A DNA stretch of 64,000 bases from Abditibacterium sp. (GTDB lineage: Bacteria; Armatimonadota; Abditibacteriia; Abditibacteriales; Abditibacteriaceae): assembly GCA_965246885.1 (NCBI GenBank), contig CBDFFV010000001.1, positions 1 to 64,000 on the forward strand. Direction: 5' to 3'. Position 1 is the stretch's first letter; every line of letters starts with the position of its first letter. Made by a program: the position numbers and the translations under genes. This document shows, piece by piece, positions 7,141-32,116 of this stretch. The notes below the pieces were generated by a model that worked only from the letters and a program-made list of their open reading frames with translations, was not told the origin of the DNA and did no database searches.

Positions 7141-7427
7141 AAAGATGGCGGCGACGGTTTTGCCAAAACGATGCTCAAAGTGATACCACAAGCGCCCCTC
7201 TCTTTAGTTGCACGCGTGTGGCGCCACATTGGAGGCGCCTGCGTTGGAAGAGGCGGCGAGACCTCCCGTTTCGGCGCCGTCCGAACGTGAATTCCCGACA
7301 AGAACGGTGGATGGGGCGCCCTTTCGAGAACGCGCGAAAAGGGTAGTCGCCCCCGCAGAACGCTTTTGCCGCAAACTGGGCGAATCCCGACCGCGCGCTC
7401 AAAGCGCGCGATGGGCGGGACTGGACT

Positions 7428-8741
7428 ATGAATTTATCGGCTCCACTTCCGATTACCGTCTTATTCTTTGACCACACCGCCCGCATGGGCGGGGGCGAGG
7501 TGTCGCTGTTTAACCTCGTGACGCACCTTGACCGCGCGCGCATTGATCCGGTTGTGGTGTTGGCCAGCGAAGGCGAACTGCGCGACAAACTGCGCGAGGC
7601 GGGCGTGGAAGTCCACGTCCTGCCGCTCGACGAAGCGGTGACGGAAGTCCGCAAAGATTCCCTCTCGTCGGCGCGCGCGGTCTCTTTGACTCAAGCCGTG
7701 CAAATCGCGCGTTACGTGTGGCGCCTGAGCGGTTTCATCCGCGCGCGCGGCGCGCAAATCATCCATGCCAACTCGCTCAAAGCGGACTTAATCGCCGCCC
7801 TTGCGGGGCGCTTGAGCGGCGTTCCGGTCATTTGGCACGTGCGCGACCGCATCGCCGACGACTACCTGCCCGCCCTCGCCACGCGCGCTTTTCGCTTCTT
7901 GTGCCGCTTCTTGCCCACTTTTGTCATCGTCAACTCGCACGCGACCTTGGCAACGCTGGAATTGCCCCGTGCGCGGCGCGCGCGCGTCATTTATAACGGC
8001 GTGGTGCACGACGGCCTACCGCCCGGAGAATTTCAAGAAGCGATGATGGCCCGAAGCGGCGCGCCCAACGGCGCGCCCAATAAAGCGCCCGTCATCGGTT
8101 TAGTGGGACGGATTTCTCCTTGGAAAGGGCAAGACATCTTTTTGCGTGCGGCGGCGGAAGTGGTAAAGCAGTTTCCGGGCGCACGCTTTCAAATCATCGG
8201 TGCCCCCCTGTTTGGCGAAGAAGCGTATGAGCACGAGGTGCGCGCCCTGTGCACGGAGTTGGGTTTGGATGACAGCGTCGAATGGCTGGGCTTTCGGCGC
8301 GATGTGCCCCAACTGGTGTCGGGGCTGGACTTGCTCGTGCACGCTTCCAAAACCGGCGAGCCGTTTGGCCAAGTCGTGGTCGAAGCGATGATGGCGGCCA
8401 AACCCGTGGTGGCAACCAATGGCGGCGGCATCCCGGAAATTGTCCTCGACGGCGACACGGGTTTGCTCGTGCCAATGGACGACGCCCCCGCAATGGCGCG
8501 CGCCATCGAATACATCCTGAGCGACCCGGCGATGGCCCGCCAGATGGGGGAACGCGGCATCGTGCGCGCGCGGGAATACTTCTCCATCACCCGCACGAGT
8601 AGCAAAATCGCGCGCGTCTACGACCACCTGCTCTTGCAAGAAGCGGAGAAAAAGCGCCGGATACGGGCCCTCGCATGGGTGGCGATGGGCTTTGCGGTGG
8701 CCAGTCTCGTGCTTTCCAAGAGCCAGCGCGACGCAAAATAA
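7428..8741 (+). CDS. GT4 family glycosyltransferase with C-terminal hydrophobic anchor
   Basis: MGGGEVSL, GRISPWKGQ and EPFGQVVVEAM motifs; ends in ALAWVAMGFAVASLVL. Confidence 0.9.
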   Translation: MNLSAPLPITVLFFDHTARMGGGEVSLFNLVTHLDRARIDPVVVLASEGELRDKLREAGVEVHVLPLDEAVTEVRKDSLSSARAVSLTQAVQIARYVWRLSGFIRARGAQIIHANSLKADLIAALAGRLSGVPVIWHVRDRIADDYLPALATRAFRFLCRFLPTFVIVNSHATLATLELPRARRARVIYNGVVHDGLPPGEFQEAMMARSGAPNGAPNKAPVIGLVGRISPWKGQDIFLRAAAEVVKQFPGARFQIIGAPLFGEEAYEHEVRALCTELGLDDSVEWLGFRRDVPQLVSGLDLLVHASKTGEPFGQVVVEAMMAAKPVVATNGGGIPEIVLDGDTGLLVPMDDAPAMARAIEYILSDPAMARQMGERGIVRAREYFSITRTSSKIARVYDHLLLQEAEKKRRIRALAWVAMGFAVASLVLSKSQRDAK

Positions 8742-8867
8742 ACGTGGGCGCGTCCGAGCGCGCCCGCTTTATTTGCCCCCAATGCCCCACTTTAACGACG
8801 GTTCTTACCCCTCGAAACGCATTGGAAAAGAAGGAAGGCCCAAGAGTTGGCAAACTGTTTCCCAACG

Positions 8868-11015
8868 ATGAGATTTGTCCGTCCCGTTTTTCTGCTCGCG
8901 CTTCTTCTGGCGCCGTCGCCTTTGCGCGGGGTGTGGGGGCAAAGCGCCGCGCGCACGATGCGCTCCGAAGGTTACATCCTTGGCCCCGGCGACGTGTTGC
9001 GGATCAGCGTGGCTGGCTTTCCCGAATTCTCGCAGGAAACCCTTGCTGTTCCCCCCGATGGCAGCGCTTCGCTTGCGCGCATCGGCACTATCCGCCTGAG
9101 CGGTCGCACCCGCGCGGCGGTGCAAGAGGAAGTACGCCAACGACTCATCGCCCGCGTGCGCTTGCGCGATCCGCAAGTCACCGTCACGCTGTTGACCGTC
9201 CGGTCGGGCATCATCGGCGACGCTTCACTGAGCGGCGACGTGCCGCGCAGTGGCAACTTCCCGTTGCACGAAAACGAGCGCTTGTCCTCGCTGCTGGCCG
9301 AAGCGGGGCTAAACGACCGCTTGGACGAAAAGCGCGCCACCCTGTCGCGCGCAGGCGCTTCCTATGCCCTCGACCTGCGCGGCGCCGCGATGCACCCCGG
9401 CTCCAAGGCCGACGTTTTGTTGCGCGCGGGCGATGCCATCGCCGTGCGCACCCTCGCCCCGGCAAAAATCGTCGTTCTGGGTGATGTCGCGCGACCGGGC
9501 GTCTACGAGTTGCACCGCCAGCCCCGCCCCGAAGCGTATGAACTGGGGTTGGCGCCCCGGCTGAGCGACCTTCTTATCCGAGCAGGCGATTTGGCGTTCC
9601 CCGGAAGCGGCGCAGGCACCAGTGGCGGCGGCGCAGGCACCGGTGGCGGCGGCGCAGGCACCGGTGGCGGCGGCGCAGGCACCAGTGGCGGCGGCGCAGG
9701 CACCGGTGGCGGCGGAACGACGGGAGCGGTATCCGGGAGCGCGCCCGCCTCCCCCGGCGCGCCCGTTTCCTACGCCGCTACGCTTCAAAGGGACGGCGCG
9801 CGTTTGCCGCTGGACGTCGAAGCGGCGCGGGATGACGTCTTCGGGCCAGCGAACATCTTTTTGCACGCGGGGGACACCGTTTCCGTGCGGTTGGTGCGCC
9901 CCATCACGGTTTATCTGGACGGCGCAACGGCCAAGACCGGCTCTTTTGAATTGGCGCCGGGCGCGGGCGTGTTGCAACTGCTCGTTCTGGGTGGGCCGCT
10001 TTCCCGCGCGCCGGGCGAACTCAAGGCTTCCATCCGGCGCGGCGACACGACCATGCCGTTCGACCTCTCCGCCCTCTTGCTATCGAGCGAGTCGAGCGCC
10101 AACGTCCGTTTGCAAAACGGCGACATCGTCCAACTGCGCGAACCCGAAACCGTCAGCGTCAGGGTCGCGGGCGAAGTCGCCAAAACCGGCCCGCTCAAAG
10201 TGCGCCCCGGCGCCACCATCCTCGATGCCCTCCTCGCGGCGGGCGGCGTTTCGTCCAGCACGCCCGTCCAAAGCGCCCGCCTGAGCGTCTTGCGCCAAGA
10301 GGGAGACGGCTCGCAGCGCGTCTACGAGGCCAACGCCGCCGGGATTCTGGGGTTGACCGACGTTTCCACCAACATGGTGCTCCGCGATGGCGACATCATC
10401 AACCTCGCGCGCGGCGAAGACCAAACCGTGTTCGTCGCGGGCCAAGTCGCCACTCCCGGCACCTATCCGCTTGGAACCGGCGATAGCCTCGCGCAACTCA
10501 TCGTGCGCGCCGGAGGCGCCAAAGACGACGCGGCGCTGACAAGGGTGCGCGTGTCGCGCCGTGCCACCGATAAAACGCCTGCGACCGAAGTCACCATAGA
10601 CGCTTACGACGCCGTCAAAACGGGCGCCCCGCTCCCCTTTGCCCTCAAAGCGGGCGACACCATCTCCGTTCCCCTTAACACCAATCAAGTGCTGGCGATG
10701 CAAGCGTTCGCCAAACCCGGTTACTACGCCATTCCCGAACGCGGCCAACTGACGCTCTTCGACTTTCTCGCCAAGGCTCAGGTCGCGCCCGGAGTGCGCC
10801 GTTTGTACATCTCGCAAGCGGACGCCAATGGCAAGATTGACCCAAAGACCACGCCCGTGCGCACGATCAAGCTCGACGACATCCCGCGTGGGCGCCAACA
10901 GAACTTCGCGTTGGAACCGCGCGAGGTCATCTACGCCGAGTCGCCCAAAGGCCCCAAGACAAGCCCCTTCCAAGTCTTGTCCACGCTGGGCGCGCTCAGC
11001 TTTTTGTTTCCGTAA
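8868..11015 (+). CDS. wza: Polysaccharide export protein, Wza-like, with multiple SLBB domains
   Basis: Signal peptide, YILGPGDVLRISV Poly_export motif, repeated V.G.V..PG.Y SLBB units. Confidence 0.85.
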   Translation: MRFVRPVFLLALLLAPSPLRGVWGQSAARTMRSEGYILGPGDVLRISVAGFPEFSQETLAVPPDGSASLARIGTIRLSGRTRAAVQEEVRQRLIARVRLRDPQVTVTLLTVRSGIIGDASLSGDVPRSGNFPLHENERLSSLLAEAGLNDRLDEKRATLSRAGASYALDLRGAAMHPGSKADVLLRAGDAIAVRTLAPAKIVVLGDVARPGVYELHRQPRPEAYELGLAPRLSDLLIRAGDLAFPGSGAGTSGGGAGTGGGGAGTGGGGAGTSGGGAGTGGGGTTGAVSGSAPASPGAPVSYAATLQRDGARLPLDVEAARDDVFGPANIFLHAGDTVSVRLVRPITVYLDGATAKTGSFELAPGAGVLQLLVLGGPLSRAPGELKASIRRGDTTMPFDLSALLLSSESSANVRLQNGDIVQLREPETVSVRVAGEVAKTGPLKVRPGATILDALLAAGGVSSSTPVQSARLSVLRQEGDGSQRVYEANAAGILGLTDVSTNMVLRDGDIINLARGEDQTVFVAGQVATPGTYPLGTGDSLAQLIVRAGGAKDDAALTRVRVSRRATDKTPATEVTIDAYDAVKTGAPLPFALKAGDTISVPLNTNQVLAMQAFAKPGYYAIPERGQLTLFDFLAKAQVAPGVRRLYISQADANGKIDPKTTPVRTIKLDDIPRGRQQNFALEPREVIYAESPKGPKTSPFQVLSTLGALSFLFP
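9609..9713 (+). repeat. Coding 21-bp tandem repeat x5 (GAGTSGG/GAGTGGG Gly-rich linker in Wza)
   Basis: GGCGCAGGCACC(A/G)GTGGCGGC x5. Confidence 0.9.
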
Positions 11016-11030: not shown

Positions 11031-13220
11031 ATGTCGCCTTCATCTTCATCCAATAACTCCCCCCGCTCCAAAGGGGCGCCCGACGGTGGCGCGTCCGAAA
11101 ATGGCGCACGCCAAGCGCTCGCGCTCTTTGAAGGCGAGCCGCGCGAGGAGGAAGCGGCGACGCAAAACGGCAAGGGCGGAGCGCTCGAAGTGGCCGACGA
11201 CGCGGCCATCCGCGACTTTTACGCGCAACTGGTCACGCTTCTCACCCAAGAGAACGCGCCGCCCCCACCCAAGCCCAGTTCGCGCGGTTCGCTGCGCTTT
11301 GCCCTCAAGCGGCGCTGGCTGCCCGCGCTTGTGCTCGCGGCGCTCACGTTTTTGGGGCTGAATCACCTGTTGCGGCCCAAGCACATCAACTACACGGCTT
11401 CGGCGCAACTGCTGCTCCCGCCGCGTCCGGTGGTGGGCGCTGCCGATCCGCTCGCCCCGCCCGAAGCCAACTACGACACCGCCGCGCAGGTCGCGCTCAT
11501 CGGGTCGGAAGAGATCACCCAAAAAGCGATGACGCGCGTGCCCGCCGACCTGCGCCAAGCCGGGTGGGGCACGAGAGAGGTTTTCCCGCCCGATGTGCAA
11601 GTGGCGTCCGCCTCATCCGACAGCAACAGCAGCCTAATCGAAATCTCCGTTCCTTCGGGCGACCCCGACGCCTCACAGTTATTGGCGACCGAACTCATCA
11701 ACGCTTACACGCAGTTCAATCGGCAACGCGGCGCGGAAACGCGCGACGAGAACCTACGGCGTGCGAAGTCGCGCGTCACGCAAGTGTCGGCGGCGCTCGA
11801 ACGGGCGCGCCTTGACCGCGCCAATCTGAAAATTCGCTCCGGCGTGGGCGATGCTGGCATGGCCCAAGGCAGCGCGGCGGCCAACATCCAGCAACTGCAA
11901 AACTCTCTCGATGATGCACGCCGAAGCGCCGCCAGCGCGGGCACTTCCGACAGCACTCTCGCCACGCTCCGCAACCAATTGCAAACCACCCAAATCGCCT
12001 TGCAAACCGTGTTGCGCGATTTCTTCCCCGACTCCGACCGCGCCCGCGCCGCCCAAGCAGACGTAGACCGCGCTCAACAGGCCGTCACCGCCCGCGAAGC
12101 CGAACTGAGGAGCAACGCCGCATCACAAATCGCCCTTCTCGAAGCCTCGTTGCGCGCCGCGCGCGCCGACGCCCAGCGCCTGCCCGAAGTCGAGCGCGAG
12201 CAAAGCCGTCTCAATGACCGCATTGCCAATTTAGAGGGCGCCTTGACCGCCGCCACCGCCCGCGAAAACCAACTCGTCCAATTGCGCGACGTTATCGCAC
12301 AACCTGCCAAGGTCATCCGCTCGCCCGAAGTCGGCTCCAACCAAGGCGTTCAAAAACTCCGCGCCCTGTTCGCGGCATTGTTGGGCGCGCTCGTGGTGGG
12401 ATTGGTCGGGGCGATACTATTCGACCGGCTCGACAAGAGCGTGCGGGCCACGCCCGACCCCGAAACCTTGTGGAATGCGCCCGTTGTGGGCGCTTTGCCC
12501 AAAGGCACCGACGACGACACGCTGTTTCGTGCCACGCCCGACAAAAGCCGCGCCGGAGCCGGGGCGCGCACCCAAAACATCGAGGCGTGCTTTACCGCGC
12601 AGAGCAACATCCTCGCCCTTGCGGCGCAAGCCGGGGCGCGCTCCATCCTCTTTTCCAGCGCCCTGCCGGACGAAGGCAAAGCCGCCAGCGCCGCCAATCT
12701 CGCCGTCGCGATGGCGTACGGCGGACGCGAAACCCTCCTCATTGACGCCGACTTCCTCAACCCCACGCAGCATAAAAACTTCTTGTTGCCCCTCTCGCCC
12801 GGTTACGCGCACGTTCTGCGCGACCAGATGCCCTTGTCCGAAGCGATTCGCCCCACGAGCGTGGCGAACCTGTACGTGCTCACCCCCGGACTCGAAGCGG
12901 GGCAGGACGCAGGATTGGTGATGAGCCGTTTGGCGGGCGCGCCGCACACCAAGAACCTTGTGCTACTCAAGAAATACTTCGATGTCATCGTGATCGATGG
13001 GCCGCCGACGGACACCCTCGGCGACGCGCAACTTATCGCGCACTTGGCCGATGCCGTCGTGCTGGTGAGCGCCGAATCCACTCCGCGCGCCGAAGTGCAG
13101 CGCGCGCGCTCGATGCTGCGTTTATCGGGGGCGTTCCTGCTGGGCGTGGTCGTCAACCGCGTGCGGCGCGGCGAGGTGGCCGACTGGGACAAACACTCTG
13201 CCGCCGAAGCGGGGAAGTAA
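11031..13220 (+). CDS. Wzc-like polysaccharide co-polymerase with degenerate BY-kinase domain
   Basis: Two TM segments flanking a coiled coil; Walker A reads PDEGKAA; LLIDAD and VIVIDGPP present; no C-terminal Tyr cluster. Confidence 0.8.
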   Translation: MSPSSSSNNSPRSKGAPDGGASENGARQALALFEGEPREEEAATQNGKGGALEVADDAAIRDFYAQLVTLLTQENAPPPPKPSSRGSLRFALKRRWLPALVLAALTFLGLNHLLRPKHINYTASAQLLLPPRPVVGAADPLAPPEANYDTAAQVALIGSEEITQKAMTRVPADLRQAGWGTREVFPPDVQVASASSDSNSSLIEISVPSGDPDASQLLATELINAYTQFNRQRGAETRDENLRRAKSRVTQVSAALERARLDRANLKIRSGVGDAGMAQGSAAANIQQLQNSLDDARRSAASAGTSDSTLATLRNQLQTTQIALQTVLRDFFPDSDRARAAQADVDRAQQAVTAREAELRSNAASQIALLEASLRAARADAQRLPEVEREQSRLNDRIANLEGALTAATARENQLVQLRDVIAQPAKVIRSPEVGSNQGVQKLRALFAALLGALVVGLVGAILFDRLDKSVRATPDPETLWNAPVVGALPKGTDDDTLFRATPDKSRAGAGARTQNIEACFTAQSNILALAAQAGARSILFSSALPDEGKAASAANLAVAMAYGGRETLLIDADFLNPTQHKNFLLPLSPGYAHVLRDQMPLSEAIRPTSVANLYVLTPGLEAGQDAGLVMSRLAGAPHTKNLVLLKKYFDVIVIDGPPTDTLGDAQLIAHLADAVVLVSAESTPRAEVQRARSMLRLSGAFLLGVVVNRVRRGEVADWDKHSAAEAGK

Positions 13221-13223
13221 GGT

Positions 13224-13306
13224 GCTCACCGTGTGGCGGCTCACCGTGTGGCGGCTCACCGAGTGGCGGCTCACCGAGTGGCGGCTCACCGTGTGGCGGC
13301 TCACCG
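13224..13306. repeat. 15-bp tandem repeat GCTCACCG(T/A)GTGGCG, 5.5 copies, between convergent genes
   Basis: Units at 13224, 13239, 13254, 13269, 13284 and a partial at 13299 that contains the ABC transporter stop codon. Confidence 0.9.
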
Positions 13307-15211
13307 ATACGACTGCGCTTGCGTTTCAAACAGGTTGGCGTAAAGGCCGCCTTGGGCGAGCAGTTCCTCGTGCGTGCCGCGCGCGACCAAAACGCCTTTA
13401 TCGAGGACGCAGATCGAGTCGGCCAAGCGCACCGTCGAGAGGCGGTGCGAGATGAGTAGGGCGGCGCGGCCTTGCACCAATTCGCGGAACGACTCAAACA
13501 GTTCGGCTTCGGCGCGCGGATCGAGGGCGCTGGATGGCTCGTCCAAGATCAGCAGTTGCGACGGGCGTAAAAAGGCGCGCGCGAGGGCGATTTTCTGCCA
13601 CTGTCCGATGGAAAGCTCCTCGCCACCCGCGAAGTCGCGGCCCAACAAAGTATCCAACCCTTCGGGCAAGCGGTCGGCAATACGATTGACGCCCGCGCGA
13701 TACGCTGCTTCTTCGACTTGGCGGCGCGTGAGGGGTGACATTAGTTCGCGCCCTTCGGGAGAAACAACGTCGCTGTCTCTGGGGTGCGTGGCGGGCAAGC
13801 GCAGGTCGCCCAGCCAGATGTTCTCGGCGAGGGTGAGGGAATAGTGGTTGTAGTCTTGGAAAACCGCCGAAATGCCGCGCCGCCACTCGACGGGGTCGCA
13901 GTCGCGCGCGTCCACCCCATCGAGCGCGATGCGCCCGGCATCGGGGTCATACAAACGGCAGAGCAGCTTGACGAGGGTGGTTTTGCCCGACCCGTTCTCG
14001 CCCACAAGCGCCACCACTTCGCCCGGAGCAACCGAGAAAGAGATGTCTTTCAGGGCTTGGCGCTCGGAGTTGGGATAGCCAAAAGAGAGGTTCTCGACCG
14101 TCAAGCCGCTCTTCCAGCGCGTGGGCAACGCCTTGGGAACGGCGGGCGCGACGAGCTTGGGTTGCAAGTCGAGGAACTGATACAACAGAGACAAAAACGT
14201 GGTGTCCTCGTGAAGCGACAAGATGGAGCCGAGGGTGCCTTGCATCGAGCCTTGCGCGCGTTGCACCGCTCCGAAATACATCACCAAGGCGCCCAGCGAG
14301 AGGGTGCCCGCGAAGGTTTTCGAGGCGATATACGCGAGGAGCGCGAAGGTGGGCGCGACGACGAACAGTTGCACGCTCCCGTCGGCCAGCATGCGCCGCC
14401 GCGCCACGCGCAAACGTCCGCTTGATAGCCACGCGCGCATGGCGTCGAAGCGGGCGCTGAAAAAGGGCGCCATGTCGAACAAGCGCACTTCCTTGGCGAA
14501 GGGTTCGAGCGTCAGCAGGTAGTTGAAGTACCCCGCGCGGCGCTCGATGGGCGTGCTTTTCATCGTCCATTCCCAAAGAATGGACACAAAGCGCAAACGC
14601 ACGAACAAGCCCGGCAGCACCGACAAGAACAGCACGAACGGCACAATGGGATGGAGCGTGAACAGCAAGGCGCCGATGGCGGCGAGCGAAAAGAGGTTTT
14701 GCCCCAAGCTGGTCAGCCCGTTCACGATGCGCGTCGGGCGAAAGGGCGCTTCTTCTTGGGCGCGATGGAGGGAGTTGAAGAACTCGGCGTTCTCGAAATA
14801 CTCCAAATCCATGCGCGCCGCCTGTTTTTGCACGAGCGCGCTCATGCGCCGCGACACGACCAGCCCTTGCCCCTCGCTTACGAACGACGAAGCCGTCGAA
14901 CACAAAGAGGAAAGAAGCGCGACGCCGCCCGCGAGCGCGATGAGTTCGAGGGAAACGTGCCATGCCGCTTCGCGCGCGGCACCGGGCAGGAGCGTCGCCC
15001 CGTGCGTAACCGCGTCCACGATGCGCCCCAGCAACCACAACGAGGCGAGCGGCAAGATGGCGCCCGCCGCCACCAAAAGCAGCGACGCCGCCATCCACCC
15101 CGGCCCGCTTGACCAAACCAATTGGATGGCGCGTCCCAATAGTGCCAGAGAGCGCACGCGGCTCCAGATGCGGTGTTTCACAAAAAGAAGTAGTGTGGTC
15201 GAAGCACGCAA
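13301..15211 (-). CDS. ABC exporter (fused TMD-NBD), lasso peptide cluster D protein
   Basis: N-terminal TM domain; Walker A GENGSGKTT, signature LSIGQWQK, Walker B LILDEPSS; abuts the kinase gene; start uncertain. Confidence 0.9.
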   Translation of the reverse strand: MRASTTLLLFVKHRIWSRVRSLALLGRAIQLVWSSGPGWMAASLLLVAAGAILPLASLWLLGRIVDAVTHGATLLPGAAREAAWHVSLELIALAGGVALLSSLCSTASSFVSEGQGLVVSRRMSALVQKQAARMDLEYFENAEFFNSLHRAQEEAPFRPTRIVNGLTSLGQNLFSLAAIGALLFTLHPIVPFVLFLSVLPGLFVRLRFVSILWEWTMKSTPIERRAGYFNYLLTLEPFAKEVRLFDMAPFFSARFDAMRAWLSSGRLRVARRRMLADGSVQLFVVAPTFALLAYIASKTFAGTLSLGALVMYFGAVQRAQGSMQGTLGSILSLHEDTTFLSLLYQFLDLQPKLVAPAVPKALPTRWKSGLTVENLSFGYPNSERQALKDISFSVAPGEVVALVGENGSGKTTLVKLLCRLYDPDAGRIALDGVDARDCDPVEWRRGISAVFQDYNHYSLTLAENIWLGDLRLPATHPRDSDVVSPEGRELMSPLTRRQVEEAAYRAGVNRIADRLPEGLDTLLGRDFAGGEELSIGQWQKIALARAFLRPSQLLILDEPSSALDPRAEAELFESFRELVQGRAALLISHRLSTVRLADSICVLDKGVLVARGTHEELLAQGGLYANLFETQAQSYR

Positions 15212-16207
15212 TTAGCCCCGCGTTTCGCGCACCAGCCGCGTCACGGTTTCGATGGTTTGCGGCAACAGCGCGAGGTCGCGGCGGCGCGACAGTTCCCAGA
15301 CATGGCAGTGAGCGGCTAAGGCTGCGCACGCGCGAAAGTGCGCCACGCGCCGCGCGCCAGTCAAATACAAGTCACTCCAGCGCGCAGCGAAAGTATGGGG
15401 GAGCAACTGCCCCAGCGCTTCTCCCGGCGACAGCGCGCGGGCATCTATGTCGGGACGCGCGGGGTCATCGTGCGAAGCCAACAGGAAAACGTGTCGCAAC
15501 GGGCGGGCGGCGCTCGCAAGCGGGGCCATGAAGTACTGCTTGTCTACTAACCCCATGCCGTCCAGTTCGGGCGCCACGCGCGGGAGGGTGTCGGGCGCCG
15601 CCCCAACGACAGCGCGCACCGCGTCCGGCACCAATTTCATCGAACCAAATCCCACGCGCGCGAGCGGCGCTCCCAACGGCGCGTCGGACGCGAAGTCAAG
15701 GGCCAGCACATCGTCGCAAAACAAGGGATAACCCGCAAGCGAAAACGCGGCGCCAAGGGTGGATTTGCCTTGCCCCTTGTCGGCGGCAAAAGCGCAGGCA
15801 ACGGGTTGGCCATCGGCGTCAGTCATTTCAACGGCGCCCGCATGGAGCGCCAACCAACCGCGCGCTTCGAGCAAAAGGGCCAAAACGCTGCCAAGAAGGG
15901 GCACGCGCCACGTCGAAGCGGATGTGCCTTCAAGCGGCTCAACCAAAACGCGCGCGTCGCCCTCGATTTCAAAGCGGCCCACTTGGGCAAAAAGCAGGGA
16001 AGAAGAGTTCTCGGAAAAGCTCAAAACGTTCTCGATGGGGGCGTCGGGCGCGTTTCGTGCTTCAACTTCGGCGAGTGGTAAAGTCCTGCCCACTTCAATC
16101 GAAACGTCAGCGCCCCCACTCGCATCGAACGCGGGCAAATCGGGCAAGGCGAACTGCGATTGGAAGCGCAGGCCGTAAGCGAAGCGGCGGTCAAGCGGCG
16201 GGGTCAT
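15212..16207 (-). CDS. HPr kinase-like lasso peptide kinase (PadeK/ThcoK type)
   Basis: AYGLRFQS N-terminus, LALHAGAVE, GQGKSTL P-loop and CDDVL motifs; directly downstream of lasso precursors. Confidence 0.8.
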   Translation of the reverse strand: MTPPLDRRFAYGLRFQSQFALPDLPAFDASGGADVSIEVGRTLPLAEVEARNAPDAPIENVLSFSENSSSLLFAQVGRFEIEGDARVLVEPLEGTSASTWRVPLLGSVLALLLEARGWLALHAGAVEMTDADGQPVACAFAADKGQGKSTLGAAFSLAGYPLFCDDVLALDFASDAPLGAPLARVGFGSMKLVPDAVRAVVGAAPDTLPRVAPELDGMGLVDKQYFMAPLASAARPLRHVFLLASHDDPARPDIDARALSPGEALGQLLPHTFAARWSDLYLTGARRVAHFRACAALAAHCHVWELSRRRDLALLPQTIETVTRLVRETRG

Positions 16208-16221
16208 GGTGGGGTAGGGCA

Positions 16222-16254
16222 CAAAAACAAAAAAGGCCCGCAATGGAGCCTTTT
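16222..16254 (-). terminator. Rho-independent terminator after lasso precursor genes
   Basis: Minus strand AAAAGGCTC-CATTGC-GGGCCTTTTTTGTTTTT: GC hairpin followed by a U-tract. Confidence 0.7.
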
Positions 16255-16365
16255 GAGTTTTGTTTGCTGCGTATCAGGAAGATTGTGCGGCCAAAGCGCC
16301 CTTGTCCGGGCCGGAGTCAGCGATTCGTGGATTGCAGGTCGGTCGTTCTTTGAACGTGGTGTCTC

Positions 16366-16509
16366 TTACGAGAGGCTCGTATTAATGAGGCTCACGCTGG
16401 AGCCAGCGATCAAAGTGCGGTCGAGTTTGCTTCCGTGAGAGTTCTGCTGGGTGATTTGCGCAACGGTGCCATGAACGGTCAGTTGCGGGGTTTGGTAGGA
16501 TTTTTTCAT
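16366..16509 (-). CDS. Lasso peptide precursor A2 (47 aa): [47 protein letters not shown]
   Basis: Hand-translated and absent from the ORF track; YxxPxL leader motif, Thr at -2, Asp9, C-terminal Ser. Confidence 0.9.
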
Positions 16510-16595
16510 CTGTTGGCACTTTGAAGTGGGAAGTGGGTAGAGATGATCCGATCCTTTGCTTGTCCCCTTAGCACCTTGGGAGGCGCCGTCTCAAG

Positions 16596-16733
16596 TTACG
16601 AGAACAAGAGGTTCTTTTTGGGAGTGTTCACGGGGAAGGAACGGTCGAGGTTGTCGCCGTCTTTGTTCCCTTGGGTGATTTGCGCAACGGCGCCGTGAAC
16701 GGTCAGTTGCGGGGTCTGGTAGGATTTTTTCAT
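16596..16733 (-). CDS. Lasso peptide precursor A1 (45 aa): [45 protein letters not shown]
   Basis: Hand-translated; strong SD AGGAGGTG 7 nt upstream; YxxPxL leader, Thr at -2, Gly1, Asp9, C-terminal Ser. Confidence 0.93.
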   Translation of the reverse strand: MKKSYQTPQLTVHGAVAQITQGNKDGDNLDRSFPVNTPKKNLLFS

Positions 16734-16826
16734 GTGTTGTCACCTCCTGTTTAAGTGGAATAGGGTTTGTCCAGCTAACCTCGGCCCGGACAAAAGCACC
16801 TAAGCACGTCTCATCTTCCTCTCCAA

Positions 16827-16856
16827 AGCATAGCATACGGTTTGGACGCGGTGCAA
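16827..16856 (-). promoter_or_regulatory. Putative sigma70 promoter for lasso precursors
   Basis: TTGCAC-18 bp-TATGCT with a TGn extended -10 on the minus strand, about 95 bp upstream of A1. Confidence 0.5.
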
Positions 16857-16897
16857 GCACAATTTTTCTTTTAACAGTTAAAGTTATCTACGGGCGC

Positions 16898-18943
16898 TCA
16901 AATTCCTCTTACCTGTTCCGTTTGTGTAAACGCCATGTTTCCTGAACTCCCCTTTTCGACGCCTTGCAGCCACGCGCCAAGGGCCAGTACTCGCCACAGA
17001 GCAAATGCGACGCGCGTGACATGACCGCCGGAGGGCGGCAGAATTTTTAATTCTTCCCACAAGCGGTGCACGGCAGCGACGTCGAGCCACTCAGCCAGCG
17101 CGCCCGGTTCTTCCAGCCATGTTTCAATGCGTGCGGCTTCAACCGCGCGCAGCCCATGAATCATTTGCGGCGCGAAGTTCGTTTTCGCGGCCCGCCATTG
17201 CACTCCCGGAGGTAGTAGCCCTTGCATCGCGCGGCGCATGACCCAGCGATTCCAGCCGTCGCGCAGTTTTTGATCGGACGGCAGGCTTAGACACAGTTCC
17301 ACCATCTCCTGCTCCCAAAACGGAACGCGCACTTCAAGCGCGTGCGCGCCCGCCTGAGAATCTATCGCTTCGAGGGCAACCGCTTGCATGGCAGTCCCCA
17401 ACATTTCGGCGTGGTGGGCGCGCACGATTGGACTAGCGGGAGGAGAAGAAATGGCCGGCAGCAAAGCGCGTTTGTCGGCGCGCACCAGTTCTCGCACCAA
17501 TGCGGCGCTTTCTTCGTCTTCCGACGCGGAACCGGAGCGCGCGCGAGGAAAAGGCATGGCCTCGATGCCGCGTGAAAACAGGCGCAGAAAACGTCCGAGG
17601 AAGCGGGTGCCGCGCGCGCGTTGCATGAGCGGCCCCCACCACAACGGCCAGATGGATTGATTGGTGATGCCAGCGCGCCGCAGGGCGCGCAGTTCGTGGC
17701 GCGCCGCCCCGAAACGACGCTGAAAGGCCAATTCCGCCACCCGCTCGTAACCCAAAAAGACCACTTCGTCGCCGCCGTGCCCATCCAACACGACCTTCAC
17801 GCCCGCTTCTTGAAGCGGTGGGTATTGCACCCACGTCGAGCAGGTGTTGGGGCCAAGGGGGGGGCCATCGAGGTGCCACACGACGCGCTCGATGTCGTGC
17901 AAGGCGCCAATGTCGTCGCCCCAAACCCACTCGCGCCGGAGCTTGTCGCCCGCCAAGGCGAGGTTTTGCTCGATCCAAGGGCGCTCGTCGCATTCGGCGA
18001 AGCGGGCAAAGACCGTCGAAAGCGCCAAAAGAGGCACTTTGTCGGGCGGGGCTTGGCGGATCGCCACCGCCGCCACGGACGACGAGTCCAACCCGCCCGA
18101 CAAAAACGTGGCCAGTTCGCCCGCGCTCCGGCTGCGCTCGGCGACGCTGCGCTCAAAGGCCGCTTTCACCCTTTGGGCGTAATCATCATCATGCGGAAGT
18201 TCCAATTCGCGGCTCGCGTCGAGGCTGAAATACTGCCCTTGGCGCGGTGAGGCGGACGGGTGGGCATCGAGTGCAAGCGAAAGGGTGCGCGCGGGTGCCA
18301 AGCGCTCGACGCCCTCATAAAAAGTGCGTGTGAAAGAAGTAATTTCCCCCGCGAGATATGCGCCGATTTGAACCTCGTCGGGGCAGGGCGGGAAGGGCAG
18401 GGCGGGCCACAGCGCCTTGATTTCGTTGGCGAAAGCGAACACGACGCCCGGCACGAAAGCGAAGTAAAAAGGTCGCACGCCGAAGCGGTCGCGCGCGCAG
18501 AAAAGGGTCTGATTCTTTTCGTCCCACACGGCGAAAGCGAAGTCACCCTTTAAATGGAAGGGCGCTTCTTCGCGCCACAAGGAATACGCTTCGAGCGCCA
18601 AGCGTCCGTCGCTCCACGCCCGCGCTTTCGTTGTATCAAGTCCAAGCTCGAACGCCAACGCTTCCCGTCCGTCCAAGCGCACGTCACCGACCAACCGCAA
18701 CCACTCGCCGCCATCGGCGCTTGGAAGAGAAAGGGCGGCGGCGCCCCCAGCGCATTCCCACTGCGCTTGCGGGGTGGCGTTGAGCGGAGCGGAACCTAAC
18801 GCGACGGCGCCGCGTGCGTCCGTCCAGCGCGCGTTCCATCCGGCAACGTCTACCCGATGGCGCAGACGCTCCAGCATAGTGGCGGCGACCGCGTCAGAAG
18901 CCTCGCTGCCGTCCAAGCGGACGTATCCGACAAAAGCGCTCAT
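16898..18943 (-). CDS. Lasso peptide cyclase (C protein, asparagine synthetase-like)
   Basis: No N-terminal Cys (MSAFVG); ARDRFGVRP, LSGGLDSS, LDGHGGDE and RVPFW motifs; ATGA-coupled to B2. Confidence 0.9.
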   Translation of the reverse strand: MSAFVGYVRLDGSEASDAVAATMLERLRHRVDVAGWNARWTDARGAVALGSAPLNATPQAQWECAGGAAALSLPSADGGEWLRLVGDVRLDGREALAFELGLDTTKARAWSDGRLALEAYSLWREEAPFHLKGDFAFAVWDEKNQTLFCARDRFGVRPFYFAFVPGVVFAFANEIKALWPALPFPPCPDEVQIGAYLAGEITSFTRTFYEGVERLAPARTLSLALDAHPSASPRQGQYFSLDASRELELPHDDDYAQRVKAAFERSVAERSRSAGELATFLSGGLDSSSVAAVAIRQAPPDKVPLLALSTVFARFAECDERPWIEQNLALAGDKLRREWVWGDDIGALHDIERVVWHLDGPPLGPNTCSTWVQYPPLQEAGVKVVLDGHGGDEVVFLGYERVAELAFQRRFGAARHELRALRRAGITNQSIWPLWWGPLMQRARGTRFLGRFLRLFSRGIEAMPFPRARSGSASEDEESAALVRELVRADKRALLPAISSPPASPIVRAHHAEMLGTAMQAVALEAIDSQAGAHALEVRVPFWEQEMVELCLSLPSDQKLRDGWNRWVMRRAMQGLLPPGVQWRAAKTNFAPQMIHGLRAVEAARIETWLEEPGALAEWLDVAAVHRLWEELKILPPSGGHVTRVAFALWRVLALGAWLQGVEKGSSGNMAFTQTEQVRGI

Positions 18944-19416
18944 GACGTTGCGCCACCGGGAGAGGGCGGCGCAAGAGTAGCCGATGCCCCTTTGGGCGCG
19001 ACCGTCAAGAGCGGTTTCCACCTCTCAATCGGCCCCCCGATGATGACCCGACCCTTCCACTCGATCCATGCGTGCGCTTCAAACGGTTTGCGTTTGTTCG
19101 CGGTGGCGTCCACTCCCAGCACCAGCGCACACACCTCGCCCTCGCGGGCCAATACTGTTTGCAGCGTGAGAGCTTGGGTGAGACACGAGGCGCGGGGAAC
19201 AAAACGTGCCGCCCGCCTGACCGCATGGGCGCGCCGCCACACTTCAAAGGGCACCAATTCCGCCACCTGACTGGCCCGCGCCGCGTCGAGCAGGCGCGAC
19301 GCGTCCTCTTCCCACTGTTTGGAGCAGGAGGTGATGGGGCTGCGCCACAGCGCCCACCGCACGCGGGCGACGAGCGGCAAGTAGCGAAACGTCAAAGCCA
19401 AATCTTGCGAGGCCAT
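18940..19416 (-). CDS. Lasso peptide leader peptidase B2 (transglutaminase-like)
   Basis: ASCLTQAL catalytic Cys and FEAHAWIE His motif; start MASQDL at 19416. Confidence 0.9.
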   Translation of the reverse strand: MASQDLALTFRYLPLVARVRWALWRSPITSCSKQWEEDASRLLDAARASQVAELVPFEVWRRAHAVRRAARFVPRASCLTQALTLQTVLAREGEVCALVLGVDATANKRKPFEAHAWIEWKGRVIIGGPIERWKPLLTVAPKGASATLAPPSPGGATS

Positions 19417-19457
19417 AGTTTTGGAACAGGAAGACCGGGGGAAAAGGGCGCTCCGGC

Positions 19458-19745
19458 TTATTCGCACACTTCGATGAGTCCGCGTTCGAGCAGTTGACCC
19501 AGCAAGGCCAACACGTCGTTTTGGCACTGCGTGGCTTCGACGTCGTATTCGTCCAGTAGCTGCGAGGTGATCTCTTGGATTTCGCGCGGGCTTTGGATGA
19601 GTTCCCAGATGCGCGCTCCGACGGGATCGAGGCCGTAGTAGATGCCGTTTTGCAAATCTAAGATAGCCGCTTCGCCTGCGAGGTCGCACGAGACCTGCTC
19701 GCTGGCGGCTTTAACTTGGGTTGTGGGCAGGAGAGTGTGTGTCAT
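19458..19745 (-). CDS. Lasso peptide RRE protein B1 (PqqD family)
   Basis: QVSCDLAGEAAILDLQNGIYYGLDPVGARIWELI..EYDV is a classic lasso PqqD/RRE sequence. Confidence 0.92.
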   Translation of the reverse strand: MTHTLLPTTQVKAASEQVSCDLAGEAAILDLQNGIYYGLDPVGARIWELIQSPREIQEITSQLLDEYDVEATQCQNDVLALLGQLLERGLIEVCE

Positions 19746-19769
19746 AGAGAATGGATGAGAAAATACTGT

Positions 19770-21272
19770 TTATTCGGCGTCAGTGTCGCGCGCGGCGCTT
19801 CCATTGAGGTATTGACCGTTGCGCGCCACGATTTGAAGCGCGGGCAGGGGAGCCGGTTCACCAGTGGCGGGGGCCGCATCGTGAATTTGGGTGAGACCTC
19901 CTCCGCCGTCGAGAGGCACACTGGGCTTCGATTGTTCGGAGCGTTCGCTGATGGCGGGCAAGTCGGGTGTGACCAACCGGGTGGGTGCTTCGACCGACAC
20001 GATGTCGGAGGGCGCACTCGGCTCGCGTTCGCCGATGACAGTTTTACCGTCCGGGGCCAAAATGTGACGGCGGCGGTCGAACCACGCGAAGCGTCCGGCT
20101 TTGACGACGGCGCGGCGGCGGTCGCCCTCGCGCGGGTGGCCTGCTGGATTGCGGCGGCGATCGCCGGTTTCGTCGCGGCGGTCGCCGGGGCTGGTGGTAG
20201 CAATGACGTGCTGGATTTTGGCGCGGAAACTGGGGGTATCGAAGCGCATGGCGTTTTCGCGGATGACTTCGGGGTTCCATTCATGGGCGTAAGCGCGCTC
20301 GACCGCTTCGCATAGCGCTTCAGTGGTTTGCGGGCGGAACAGGATGCCGCTTTTGCCCTCGACTTGCACGTCCAAGGCGCCGCCTGCGGCAAACGCCACG
20401 ACCGGCACGCCCGCCGCGTTCGCTTCGACGGGCGCGATGCCAAAGTCTTCCTCACCGGGCATCAGATACATCTTCGCGCGGGCAATAAGGCCGGGCAGGT
20501 CGGCGTCGGACACGTAACCCAGAAACTCAATCGTCGGCCCGGCAATGGCTTTGAGAGCGTCCAACTGGCGCCCGGTGCCAATCACTTTCAGGGGTTGGCC
20601 TAATTTTGTGAACGCGCGCACCGCCAAATCTACGCGCTTATATGGCACCAAGCGCGAAGCGACGATGCCGTAGTCCCCGACCTCACTGCGCGGGGCGAGT
20701 TGGAATCGTTCGGTGTCCACCGGCGGGTGCACGACTTCGGCTTCGCGGCGGTAGAACTTGCGGATGCGGCGCGCGACGGCGCTGGAGTTGGCGATATACC
20801 TGTCCACGCGCATAGCGGCGATGGCATCCCACGTGCGCAAATAGTGCAGCCCCGGCGCAAGCATCGAGCGAATAGGGGAGGAGATGCGTTCTTTCTCGAC
20901 GTAAGAGGTCGTCGCCCAAGCGTAGCGCATCGGCGAGTGCGTGTAGCAAATGTGGGTGGTGTGCGGCTGGGTAATGACACCCTTGGAAAACGCCGACGAG
21001 CTTGACAGTACGAGGTCGTAACTGCTCAAATCGAACGATTCAAAAGCGGTCGGGTAAAGCAAAAGCGCCGCACGGTGCGTCATCCGCTTGGCGGGCAAAC
21101 GCTGCAAAAACGAGGTGCGAATATCCCAAGAGCGATACGTAGACGGCATCGCGTCGGGGTCATACGCCGACGTGAAGACGGGCGCTTCCGGGAAAAGGTC
21201 GTGGAACACCTCGACCACCTTTTCGGCGCCCCCCATTTGCATCAAAAAATCGTGGACAATTGCAACTCGCAT
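19770..21272 (-). CDS. GT4 glycosyltransferase (WbaZ-like mannosyltransferase) with Arg-rich C-terminal extension
   Basis: MRVAIVHDFLMQMGGAEKV, YTHSPMRYAW and EEDFGIAPVEA motifs; about 140 aa extra tail; 24 bp upstream of B1. Confidence 0.88.
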   Translation of the reverse strand: MRVAIVHDFLMQMGGAEKVVEVFHDLFPEAPVFTSAYDPDAMPSTYRSWDIRTSFLQRLPAKRMTHRAALLLYPTAFESFDLSSYDLVLSSSSAFSKGVITQPHTTHICYTHSPMRYAWATTSYVEKERISSPIRSMLAPGLHYLRTWDAIAAMRVDRYIANSSAVARRIRKFYRREAEVVHPPVDTERFQLAPRSEVGDYGIVASRLVPYKRVDLAVRAFTKLGQPLKVIGTGRQLDALKAIAGPTIEFLGYVSDADLPGLIARAKMYLMPGEEDFGIAPVEANAAGVPVVAFAAGGALDVQVEGKSGILFRPQTTEALCEAVERAYAHEWNPEVIRENAMRFDTPSFRAKIQHVIATTSPGDRRDETGDRRRNPAGHPREGDRRRAVVKAGRFAWFDRRRHILAPDGKTVIGEREPSAPSDIVSVEAPTRLVTPDLPAISERSEQSKPSVPLDGGGGLTQIHDAAPATGEPAPLPALQIVARNGQYLNGSAARDTDAE

Positions 21273-21786: not shown

Positions 21787-23076
21787 TTAAGCGGTAAGCT
21801 TGGCGGCGAGTCGGTCGGGGAAGCGCTCTTTGACTTCGCGGCGGCGCCCGCGCGTTATCTCCCCGCGCGCTCCTGCCGTGCCGGGGTTGTCACGCAAGAA
21901 GGGCGCGAGTCCCTCCCGCACGCGCTCCTCGATGGCTGTTTGCTCGTCGGGCGCAAGCTCGGCGAAGACGGCATCCAGCGCCTGATTCTGCTCCTCCTCG
22001 TCCTCGAAATCTAAGGGTAAAAGCGCGCGCGGCCCGAAATCGGGCAACAAGATTTGTCGAAGCGAACCGGGAGGGGGCGTTAATGGGCCGTTGACGGCCA
22101 TTCCCGGCGCTTGTGGCGCTTCCGGGCCATGATGTGCCAAAACGGGAGAAAGCGGGCTTCCAAAGCGAAATGTGGCGAGCGGCTCGCCATCTTTGGCCGC
22201 CTCGATTTCCATGCTTTCGAGATACCCGCGCGAGATGAGTTCCTCGACGGCGGGCGCCAGTTTTTCGCGGATTTTCGAGGGGTATTTGTAGGGCGACATT
22301 CCCAATCGGTCGCGCAACTTCCACAAACCGAGGGTGATGATCTTGCGCGGCGGCTTGTCCGCGTGACGCAGTAACTCCAGCAGGCGAAACAAGCGCCGCG
22401 AGGTCGGCGAGTCGAGCGAGATGGCGAAATCGAGCGCGAGCGAGCGCACGTTGCCCGCGTGAAAAGAGGTGTGGAGTACCTCGTCCCAATGAAACCACGA
22501 GAGCGGCAGATGCCCCTGCCCCTTGCGTCCGCGCGCTTCGGCGGAGATGGCGTAAGAACTGATAATACCAAAAGCAATGGAATCGTAGGGCGCTTTGCGG
22601 CGCGCGTCCCAAAAGGCGTGTTGCGCCGCGATGTGAACCGCGCTCAAGCGGTTGAACGCCAGCTCCAACTTTTTGTACCCGAGGTCGTTCGGGTTCCAGT
22701 CGAGCCGGGAAAGTAACTCGTAGCGGGAGAAAGTGACTTTTTGCGGCCACTCGCTTCCGGCGGCGGCTTCGCGGGTGAGTTGCAGCAAGACGAGATACAG
22801 CAACTCTTCGTTCGGCCCGGGCAACCCGTACGCCGTCGGAGTTGTGACATGCCACCGAGCGTTGACAAGCCTTCCGTCCGGCAAAGTACGCGGCGTTTCG
22901 GAAAGCAGTTCGTTTTCGCTTTGACGACCGGGTGGTTGTAAGAGCGCGAAGGGATGTCCGGCTAAATTCATCTCGTCGCGCCCGGAGTGATCGTCACCGA
23001 GCAAAACGAGCTGCGCCGAAGGCAACGGCGCAGCCGTTTTTGCCTCCGTTTGCGAAGCAAAATTGCTTTTTTTCAT
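21787..23076 (-). CDS. repA: Plasmid replication initiator protein (RepA/RPA family)
   Basis: GRDEMNLAGHPFALL N-terminal motif of RPA-type initiators, winged-helix-like core, adjacent iteron array; start 23076 (alternative 23121). Confidence 0.8.
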   Translation of the reverse strand: MKKSNFASQTEAKTAAPLPSAQLVLLGDDHSGRDEMNLAGHPFALLQPPGRQSENELLSETPRTLPDGRLVNARWHVTTPTAYGLPGPNEELLYLVLLQLTREAAAGSEWPQKVTFSRYELLSRLDWNPNDLGYKKLELAFNRLSAVHIAAQHAFWDARRKAPYDSIAFGIISSYAISAEARGRKGQGHLPLSWFHWDEVLHTSFHAGNVRSLALDFAISLDSPTSRRLFRLLELLRHADKPPRKIITLGLWKLRDRLGMSPYKYPSKIREKLAPAVEELISRGYLESMEIEAAKDGEPLATFRFGSPLSPVLAHHGPEAPQAPGMAVNGPLTPPPGSLRQILLPDFGPRALLPLDFEDEEEQNQALDAVFAELAPDEQTAIEERVREGLAPFLRDNPGTAGARGEITRGRRREVKERFPDRLAAKLTA

Positions 23077-23156
23077 AAATTTTTTTCCAATAAGGATTTT
23101 CTTTCTACTTTCTATGTGCAAAGTATGGCTTTATAAAGCCCACGCAAGGCGATCAT

Positions 23157-23485
23157 TTCCCCAACAAGGCGTGTTTCCTTCCCCAACAAGGCGTGTTTAA
23201 CCGTCCCCAATTTCCCCAACAAGGCGTGTTTCTTTTCCCCAACAAGGCGTGTTTCTTTTCGACCTCTTCCCCAACAAGGCGTGTTTCCCGATTTTAAACA
23301 CGCCTTGTTGGGGAAATCCGCGCAAATCCACGCTCAAATGCCTATGGATAACTTGGGGATAACTTTTTAAACACGCCTTGTTGGGGAAGGATTTATCGAC
23401 TCCTGAAACCTCTTCCCCAACAAGGCGTGTTTAAAATCGCGTGACTGCGCCCGAAATGCCTAAAGAAACACGCCTTGTTGGGGAA
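23157..23485. repeat. Iteron array / replication origin: nine exact copies of TTCCCCAACAAGGCGTGTTT
   Basis: Forward copies at 23157, 23179, 23212, 23235, 23267, 23413; reverse copies at 23296, 23369, 23466; immediately upstream of repA. Confidence 0.9.
23343..23362 (-). promoter_or_regulatory. Two DnaA-box-like sites within the origin
   Basis: TATGGATAA (23343) and TGGGGATAA (23354), each one mismatch from TGTGGATAA. Confidence 0.55.
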
Positions 23486-23689
23486 ATCCACGCTCAAAGG
23501 ATAACTTCGGACAGTTCCAAACCCAGTTCGGTGAGGAAGTCACTGGCGCGAGCCGATTTTCCCCTTTCATCGGGATTTGTAACAGATTGTATGGAGTATT
23601 AAGAAAAAGAAAACGCGACGAAAAGAGCCTGCCATCGCCGCCAAACGCCCGCTTATAGCCGCCGAAAAGCGGGTTATGAAAGGGATAAA

Positions 23690-32094: not shown

Positions 32095-32116
32095 GGGCAG
32101 GGTGCTTCTTTGAATC

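Follow-up and report, generated by a model that had tools for sequence, protein, structure and literature searches.

A predicted kinase-type lasso peptide operon with a GT4 glycosyltransferase gene beside exopolysaccharide genes on an Abditibacterium plasmid

Described kinase-type lasso peptides and the Abditibacterium locus

Phosphorylated lasso peptides have reportedly been known since 2016. Here, we describe a predicted lasso peptide cluster of this kind in a window of 64,000 nucleotides from Abditibacterium sp. (GenBank assembly GCA_965246885.1, contig CBDFFV010000001.1), which comprises bases 1-64000 of the 72,363-bp second contig (63% G+C) of a two-contig, 3.56-Mb genome. Eight genes in the order GT4-B1-B2-C-A1-A2-K-D, all on the minus strand, lie intact between positions 13301 and 21272, the limits at which a preliminary description of this DNA had placed them. 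They are predicted to encode a GT4-family glycosyltransferase, a recognition element (RRE) for RiPPs (peptides that are ribosomally synthesized and then post-translationally modified), a leader peptidase, a macrolactam cyclase, two precursor peptides, a kinase, and an ABC exporter, respectively.

Four described systems resemble this locus. Kinase-tailored lasso peptides are established for paeninodin, ThcoA/SyanA, and pseudomycoidin (PMC9266682, PMC6993621). The paeninodin (pade) cluster of Paenibacillus dendritiformis, like the systems of ThcoK and SyanK, combines split B1/B2 proteins, C, and D with an HprK-like kinase carrying a His-Lys-Asp-Asp (H-K-D-D) motif, and the terminal Ser of the precursor is the phosphosite (PMC9266682). 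The lasso kinases act on the linear precursor, whose C-terminal Ser they phosphorylate, and the motif is essential in ThcoK and other lasso kinases (PMC9266682). The pseudomycoidin (psm) cluster of Bacillus pseudomycoides encodes a kinase together with a PF14907-type nucleotidyltransferase, PsmN, which is needed for the addition of one or two hexoses to the pseudomycoidin phosphoserine; as the authors note, PsmN might instead only supply a host glycosyltransferase with its substrate (PMC6993621). E. coli yielded both pseudomycoidin and paeninodin in the form of free peptides (PMC9266682, PMC6993621). In Streptomyces davaonensis, the cluster-encoded glycosyltransferase IgtG modifies the davasins on Ser; this membrane GT2 enzyme has a DXD motif and a fused polysaccharide deacetylase domain and modifies the mature lasso on an internal Ser, and its cluster has no kinase (PMC11912497). 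Paeninodin-like/LPP clusters in capsule loci of Bacilli have an RRE, a kinase resembling HprK, an NTP transferase, and an exporter resembling MsbA and are co-localized with polysaccharide genes; their role is left open, and one in biofilms is offered as speculation (PMC13381572). Glycosylated lasso peptides were published in 2019 and 2025 and the Bacilli capsule-locus clusters in 2026, and glycosyltransferase genes have been found in silico to co-occur with 36% of the lasso clusters of rumen Firmicutes.

The Abditibacterium locus differs from paeninodin in belonging to another phylum and a diderm host, in its gene order, in its two precursors, in the presence of GT4 in the operon, and in being plasmid-borne. 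In contrast to the psm cluster, the nucleotidyltransferase gene (here called N) is found away from the operon, among exopolysaccharide (EPS) genes, and a recognizable GT-B enzyme is encoded within the operon. This enzyme is of the soluble GT4 type with an Arg-rich tail, and a Pfam search of the protein gave no GT2 or deacetylase domain match, which sets it apart from IgtG. Whereas the Bacilli clusters belong to monoderm Bacillota, the host here is diderm, the partners are an outer membrane polysaccharide export (OPX) protein and a polysaccharide copolymerase (PCP), i.e., Wza/Wzc, which in one related locus lie inside the operon, and a specific GT4 clade is fixed.

The idea of a glycan link is not new, as the same co-localization is in print for Bacilli (PMC13381572). 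What appears to be new here is the position of GT4 before B1 in 10 of 10 loci, the separate GT4 clade with its Arg-rich tail, the rearranged EPS flanks, and the presence of wza and wzc genes inside one lasso operon. In the literature searched, no lasso peptide report for the Abditibacteria lineage was found and Armatimonads were mentioned only in passing in surveys, which bears out the preliminary view of a poorly studied lineage. No report of a lasso-linked GT4 clade was found there either, and none linking lasso peptides with Wza, as judged from titles.

Our preferred reading is that an intact kinase-type lasso operon on an iteron plasmid specifies two lasso peptides, each predicted to have a ring of nine residues and to be phosphorylated on its C-terminal Ser, and that GT4 and N likely add sugar to them; taken as a whole, we give this reading an even chance of being right. 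B1 would bind the YxxPxL leader, K would act like PadeK and PsmK and phosphorylate the linear precursor on its terminal Ser, B2 would cut after Gln21, and C would close the ring from residue 1 to Asp9. N and GT4 would add one or more hexoses, possibly on the phosphate, the GT4 tail, with its many Arg residues, would hold on to the (poly)phosphorylated end, and D would export the product.

Core enzymes, kinase, and precursor peptides

The preliminary description had claimed a complete kinase-type lasso cluster, and its assignments of B1, B2, A1/A2, K, and D to their families held, as did that of C by best family match. The genes are closely spaced, with successive gaps from GT4 to D of 24, 41, -4, 164, 86, 158, and 0 nt. 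B1 (19458-19745, minus strand; 95 aa) is a PqqD-like RRE that matches PF05402 (PqqD) at 76.6 bits and scores 79.6 bits on the lasso PqqD chaperone family NF033536, which has a cut-off of 80. B2 (18940-19416, minus strand; 158 aa), a transglutaminase-like leader peptidase, matches PF13471 at 64.2 bits, and its stop codon shares 4 nt with the start of C. The expectation that B2 and C match lasso profiles stood for B2 (NF033537, 68.6 bits against a cut-off of 33) and in part for C, for which the lasso cyclase family NF033535 is the best match (E = 4e-136) at a score of 455 bits, below the curated cut-off of 525. C (16898-18943, minus strand; 681 aa) resembles Asn synthetases and has a PP-loop, SGGLDS, at residue 282. 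Its N terminus, MSAF, is without Cys, and an Asn-synthase-type paralogue at 49367-51277 begins with MCGI; to our knowledge, lasso cyclases are without the N-terminal Cys of Asn synthases. By sequence, the locus is a cluster of the paeninodin/pseudomycoidin type.

Both precursors exceed the cut-offs of the families NF033528 and NF033521. A1 (16596-16733, minus strand; 45 aa) scores 40.8 bits against a cut-off of 33 on the former and 22.5 against 19 on the latter, and its gene is preceded by a Shine-Dalgarno-like AGGAGG; its predicted core spans residues 22-45, with a predicted ring from Gly22 to Asp30. A2 (16366-16509, minus strand; 47 aa; NF033528, 41.8 bits) has a predicted core of residues 22-47 with Gln at core position 1. 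Seven residues are invariant in 14 aligned precursors: Y5, P8, L10, T20, Q21, G26, and D30. T20 stands at leader position -2, where we take the Thr of A1 and A2 to have a functional role. Y5, P8, and L10 form the YxxPxL leader motif, described as the RRE-binding motif (PMC13381572). D30 is core position 9, and a nine-residue ring is predicted because of this Asp. Core position 1 is Gly in A1, Gln in A2, and Ala, Glu, Gln, or Leu in relatives; this variability is unusual, and the cleavage site after Gln21 is a predicted one.

The terminal residue is Ser in both A1 and A2 and in 35 of 37 precursors of the kinase-type lasso family, the other two being the precursor of locus L089 and a doubtful call in L011. 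The core is conserved as well: among nine loci across phyla, the window included, that have an A1-type core of 24 residues, mean identity is 0.51 for the core and 0.57 for the leader, with D, FP, TP, L, and S invariant in the core. The kinases of the other eight loci are 28-53% identical to that of the window (28-35% in seven of them). A core conserved to this degree is not usual among RiPPs and speaks for a conserved partner of the predicted peptide.

K (15212-16207, minus strand; 331 aa) is predicted to be a lasso-tailoring, HprK-like P-loop Ser kinase with the H-K-D-D motif. H134, K160 (in GQGKST), D177, and D178, numbered on a 343-aa open reading frame, are invariant in 33 homologues; in the 331-aa numbering, the same motif (H122, K148, D165, and D166) is invariant in 11 lasso-locus kinases from Abditibacteria-type loci, Paenibacillus (two kinases), Rhodothermaceae, Longimonas, Nostocales, Vicinamibacterales, Marivita, and one metagenome. 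K is 36% identical (E = 5e-23) to a Paenibacillus lasso-locus kinase. The retained motif and the terminal Ser of both precursors agree with the earlier suggestion of a PadeK/ThcoK-type enzyme.

The wider kinship of K is distant. No match was found at E <= 0.01 in Pfam, PF07475 included, and the score on TIGR04352 (HprK-related kinase A) is 26.3 bits against a cut-off of 200; none of 50 close homologues carries a precomputed Pfam domain, and a distant 51st carries PF07475. The sequence of K alone found no match among Protein Data Bank (PDB) sequences, while the profile of its family reaches HprK chains at E values of 2e-4 to 0.08. A structure model of K with a predicted local distance difference test (pLDDT) score of 94.3 is closest over its full length to PEPCK (Z 16.6; root mean square deviation, 4.6; 279 residues aligned). 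HprK chains are absent among the Foldseek and VIA matches listed for K, where PEPCK chains fill the lists, and this says nothing against kinship with HprK. HprK and PEPCK belong to one P-loop superfamily. By these comparisons, K is best classed as a distant relative of HPr kinase/phosphorylase and not as a member of that family.

D (13301-15211, minus strand; 636 aa) is an MsbA-like ABC exporter with a transmembrane and a nucleotide-binding domain (ABC_tran, 109 bits). Its best NCBIfam matches are MsbA-type families, none of them over its cut-off, and it is 50-86% identical across related loci. The start of D is uncertain by about 10 codons, as relatives align only from residue 9-15 on. In two relatives another gene lies between K and D: a P450-BM3-like fusion with P450, flavodoxin, FAD, and NAD domains in genome G001 (L043:11322-14513) and a TnpB/IS605-type gene in L064 (11138-12241), where the D matches are fragmented.

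Between A2 and K, a terminator-like hairpin on the minus strand (16231-16254) consists of a 9-pair stem followed by a T-run, TTGTTTTTGT, and is a consensus match only. It was the sole meaningfully placed site of a terminator scan that returned 27 sites where 17 +/- 4.3 were expected; a promoter scan returned 2 sites against 1.5 expected, none of them useful. The spacer between D and the convergent Wzc-like gene is filled entirely by a 15-nt tandem repeat (13224-13306; 5.5 copies, 97% matches) that reaches into the stop codon of D.

The GT4 gene, nucleotidyltransferase N, and the exopolysaccharide setting

The first gene of the operon (19770-21272, minus strand) encodes a 500-aa GT-B enzyme of the GT4 family, with Glycos_transf_1 (82.3 bits) and Glyco_transf_4 (30.9 bits) both over their cut-offs. 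Some 355 residues of the protein make up the catalytic domain and 145 the tail, in which an Arg-rich segment (residues ~358-412; 20037-20201, minus strand) carries the motifs GDRR, DRRR, DRRR, and WFDRRRH. Thirteen positions of the tail (G363, D364, R365, R366, R372, R373, R385, R386, W397, D399, R400, R401, and H403) are invariant in 10 sequences. The tail occurs once in its own genome, and a search with the tail alone returned seven proteins, all of them from the lasso-linked GT4 clade; a protein atlas search with it gave no usable match. G+C at third codon positions is 0.74-0.80 across codons 351-450 of the gene.

To place GT4 among its relatives, loci were drawn from three sources. A scan for relatives of the kinase, with one genome per species, yielded 17 loci, 5 of which (from Abditibacterium and Abditibacteriota-type genomes) share the order GT4-B1-B2-C-A(n)-K-D. 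Among the 31 class genomes surveyed, its own included, the GT4 family was found in 20, in one copy each, and the kinase in 8; GT4 lies directly before B1 in 7 of these 8, and in the eighth (G016) the kinase sits elsewhere. Three metagenome loci, L062, L064, and L067, whose kinases are 52%, 43%, and 33% identical to K, likewise have GT4 before B1. GT4 is thus found immediately upstream of B1 in all 10 Abditibacteria-type loci with DNA upstream of B1; four more loci of this type end before B1 and were left out of the count. The spacing of GT4 and B1 is 13-240 nt and falls below 40 nt in 7 of the 10 loci. What lies upstream of GT4 varies: repA, a GlcNAc 2-epimerase gene, glycosyltransferase genes, a DUF5060 protein gene (L040), an epimerase gene with wza, or ManC and UGDH genes.

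The 13 other class genomes have a shorter GT4 (378-468 aa), 62-68% identical to the lasso-linked form, in Wzm/Wzt or flippase/Wzy glycan loci. In a maximum-likelihood tree, seven lasso-linked GT4s from two genera and protein P0074 (likely from locus L067) formed a clade with support of 99/94, while the short GT4s of the same genus formed a separate clade (100/99). No second member of the GT4 family was found in the Abditibacterium genome, and no orthologues of the Wzm/Wzt partners of the short GT4 were found there, the best matches being 31% and 43% as against 74% for RmlA. Among the lasso-linked loci, GT4 divergence follows that of C, K, and D (Spearman coefficient, 0.88-0.96). An ancestral glycan pair of GT4 and D, with the lasso genes inserted between them, was considered and rejected: in the lasso-less genomes, the ABC genes near the short GT4 are of the Wzm/Wzt type and ~28% identical over the ATPase domain only.

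A PsmN-type nucleotidyltransferase gene, N, lies outside the window on the same plasmid (C2:68665-70248 = L105:5866-7449; PF14907, 181 bits), convergent with a Bac_transf gene and among glycosyltransferase genes and an acyltransferase gene. If the plasmid is circular, N is ~16 kb from the lasso operon and not within it. N is most similar to the N genes linked to lasso clusters in G012, L064, and L067 (41-56%), compared with 27% for N genes of cassettes without a cyclase, which indicates, at the level of sequence comparison, that N is orthologous to the lasso-linked N genes. In many kinase-lasso loci a PF14907 gene comes after D, among them the deeper-branching G012, G026, L064, and L067, all of which have GT4 too. 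In G016 (L046:6044-9445), a PF14907 gene is followed by a GT4 gene of the same family whose tail is a run of DRR repeats, within a flippase/GT1/GT47 operon without lasso core genes. As G016 pairs N with a DRR-repeat-tailed GT4, the Arg-rich tail seems to go with K/N chemistry, and we infer that it may bind a (poly)phosphate end. Where a cluster holds N as well as a GT-B enzyme, this agrees with the separate-glycosyltransferase possibility for pseudomycoidin. The earlier suggestion of possibly glycosylated peptides stood in part: GT4 is a fixed operon member in 10 of 10 loci, and the pseudomycoidin hexose depends on PsmN and not on a GT4. Second kinase copies in G011, G003, G009, and G026 (L094, L095, L097, and L104) form K-B1-N cassettes without cyclase or B2, and the L097 and L104 cassettes lie near Wza/Wzc genes. 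Near the second kinase of G016 (L096), no B1 or N match was found.

The neighbours are as first described, with Wza, Wzc-like, flippase, and glycosyltransferase genes on one side of the operon and repA on the other. Two plus-strand genes converge on D: that of a Wza-like OPX protein (8847-11015; Poly_export and SLBB matches) and that of an atypical Wzc-like PCP (11031-13220; TIGR01007 match). The latter has no C-terminal Tyr cluster and a Walker A motif ending in GKA, whereas a second Wzc of the window (27187-29541) has GKS and a YGGYGGYYY tail. Genes of the Wzx/Wzy type, identified by Pfam matches, occupy 109-8741 and comprise a Wzy-like gene, a GT2 gene, two GT1-type genes, a flippase gene, and GT4b (7428-8741).

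Six other loci have orthologues of these EPS genes beside the lasso cluster, in differing orders and orientations. Wza orthologues are found in G011 and G003 (60%), L062 (45%), and G026 (38%), and orthologues of the Wzc-like protein in G011, G003, G001, and L062 (49-66%), with a partial match of 35% in G026. GT4b has orthologues in G011, G003, L062, and G026 (55-72%), Wzx in G026 (36%), GTa in L062 (53%), and GTb in L064 (52%). The survey of homologous clusters that had been proposed as a check on the glycan link thus returned GT4 at B1 in 10 of 10 loci and, in the DNA fetched, glycan genes beside 9 of the 10 GT4-bearing loci; the tenth locus ends right after D.

Outside the lineage, glycan genes adjoin 5 of 14 annotated loci. 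In metagenome locus L066 (1144-12270), the order is acyltransferase-WecG-B1-B2-Wza-Wzc-C-A-K-D-N, with junctions of 2-4 nt around Wza and Wzc and a precursor of the same leader type with a terminal Ser. In L017, B1 and a Wzc gene are divergently oriented, as are A and a Wza gene in L079; Bac_transf precedes B1 in L083, and three GT2 genes adjoin L010. A further Armatimonadota locus, L099, reads GT1-acyltransferase-GT4-B1...N-GT47, with Wzy nearby. The conserved tie to one EPS locus and the Wza/Wzc genes inside the L066 operon give the proposed glycan link comparative support.

The contig that carries the operon has the features of an iteron-type RepA plasmid, namely an initiator gene, a repeat array, and a separate replicon. 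repA (21787-23121, minus strand; PF10134, 35.5 bits against a cut-off of 27) is preceded immediately by an iteron array (23155-23493, minus strand) of six direct and three inverted copies, nine in all, of a unit of ~20 nt with the core CCCCAACAAGGCGTGTTT. RepA relatives at 28-33% identity are found on Planctomycetes and Rubrobacter plasmids (15 records). With ParA (39722-40381) on the same 72-kb contig, these features uphold the earlier call of a plasmid-type replicon. No overlap was found between the ends of the 72,363-bp contig, and circularity is thus not demonstrated. The plasmid also carries a GH81 glucanase-like gene (29788-32118) and a DUF1559/prepilin-type gene with LacI and AraC regulators (36150-37040).

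Competing explanations and significance

Several observations weigh against the preferred reading, and most of them concern GT4. C and B1 fall under their curated NCBIfam cut-offs. The AlphaFold model of GT4 (10 sequences; mean pLDDT, 53.8; tail, <35) is too poor to inform on the tail. No GT4 match was found within 10 kb in 11 kinase-lasso loci of other phyla. The catalytic domain of GT4 has a mean pairwise identity of 0.80, compared with 0.51 for C or K, which would fit a conserved non-peptide substrate, and its closest relatives belong to Wzm/Wzt or Wzx/Wzy glycan loci. With one family member per genome, the long and the short form could do the same glycan job. The 10 loci are kin and so do not represent 10 independent events, and with glycan genes at 9 of them, adjacency could be inherited and not functional. 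Because the catalytic domain is better conserved, the other family members are glycan enzymes, and the loci are kin, we consider a peptide-tailoring role for GT4 and an action on glycan to be about evenly balanced.

One alternative is that GT4 is an ordinary polysaccharide glycosyltransferase kept beside the lasso genes by descent. The lasso operon would have entered or arisen in an EPS locus just downstream of it. GT4 would not act on the peptide at all, which would carry phosphate alone or perhaps also a hexose added via N. We regard this explanation as less likely than the preferred reading. It would account for the short GT4s in Wzm/Wzt or flippase/Wzy loci, for the single family member per genome, for the far stronger conservation of the GT4 catalytic domain than of the lasso enzymes, and for the EPS genes at 9 of 10 loci, and the kinase-lasso clusters of other phyla do without this GT4. 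However, synteny always breaks upstream of GT4 and never between GT4 and B1, across at least six upstream contexts, and the conserved, clade-specific tail is found only in lasso-linked GT4s, which group across two genera against taxonomy. The lack of orthologues of the Wzm/Wzt partners of the short form in this genome also speaks against this alternative, and elsewhere non-homologous transferases fill the slot before B1 (WecG in L066, Bac_transf in L083, and another GT4 in L099).

A more far-reaching alternative is that the peptide is itself a substituent of the EPS: K would phosphorylate the Ser, N would activate the phosphopeptide as a nucleotide diester, and GT4 would join it by a phosphodiester to an EPS sugar, with exit via D and the Wzc/Wza-like pair. 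This kinase/nucleotidyltransferase/transferase logic would parallel phosphocholine or glycerol-phosphate decoration. The arrangement of L066, with Wza and Wzc between B2 and C, WecG before B1, and N after D, speaks for such a pathway, as do the divergent Wzc at B1 in L017, the divergent Wza at A in L079, and the single EPS locus that stays linked through rearrangements in two genera. The position of N among EPS genes next to Bac_transf, the cyclase-less K-B1-N cassettes in glycan loci, and an A1-type core about as conserved as the leader also point this way, and the pseudomycoidin hexose sits on phosphate (PMC6993621). Set against this, the basis is gene neighbourhood alone, a peptide-glycan conjugate of such a kind is not reported in the literature examined, and only 5 of 14 loci from other lineages adjoin glycan genes. 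GT4 enzymes normally use nucleoside diphosphate-sugar donors, and pseudomycoidin and paeninodin came free from E. coli. We therefore consider it improbable that the peptide is an EPS substituent. The wider proposal, that kinase-type lasso peptides are phosphodiester-linked decorations or primers of exopolysaccharide and not free antibiotics, with the triad of K, N, and tail-bearing GT4 coupling the terminal phosphoserine to a sugar and exit via the ABC exporter and the Wzc/Wza-like pair, seems to us unlikely to the same degree. Far less credible still is that the cluster is a silent or decaying plasmid passenger with no product. The separation of N from the operon in this genome could be read in that way, yet eight reading frames are intact with their catalytic motifs kept, and the same architecture recurs in 10 loci in which C and K have diverged to 36-38% identity, which implies selection.

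Returning to the reading of an intact lasso operon whose phosphorylated product is likely glycosylated, we favour a role at the cell surface or in the matrix over that of an antibiotic, since the core is conserved and the cluster stays linked to one polysaccharide locus. The work on the Bacilli capsule loci leaves the meaning of that finding open (PMC13381572). The Abditibacterium locus extends the kinase-type lasso family, as predicted from sequence, to a barely studied diderm lineage, and its GT4 is a candidate for the role of separate glycosyltransferase, which the pseudomycoidin study had left possible. It also offers clean test cases: in relatives, the operon is fused to polysaccharide-export genes, and here it is packed with a whole glycan locus on a 72-kb plasmid, which could be transferred or cured as a whole. 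Should the peptide turn out to be attached to or exported with polysaccharide, this would be a new function for a RiPP class.

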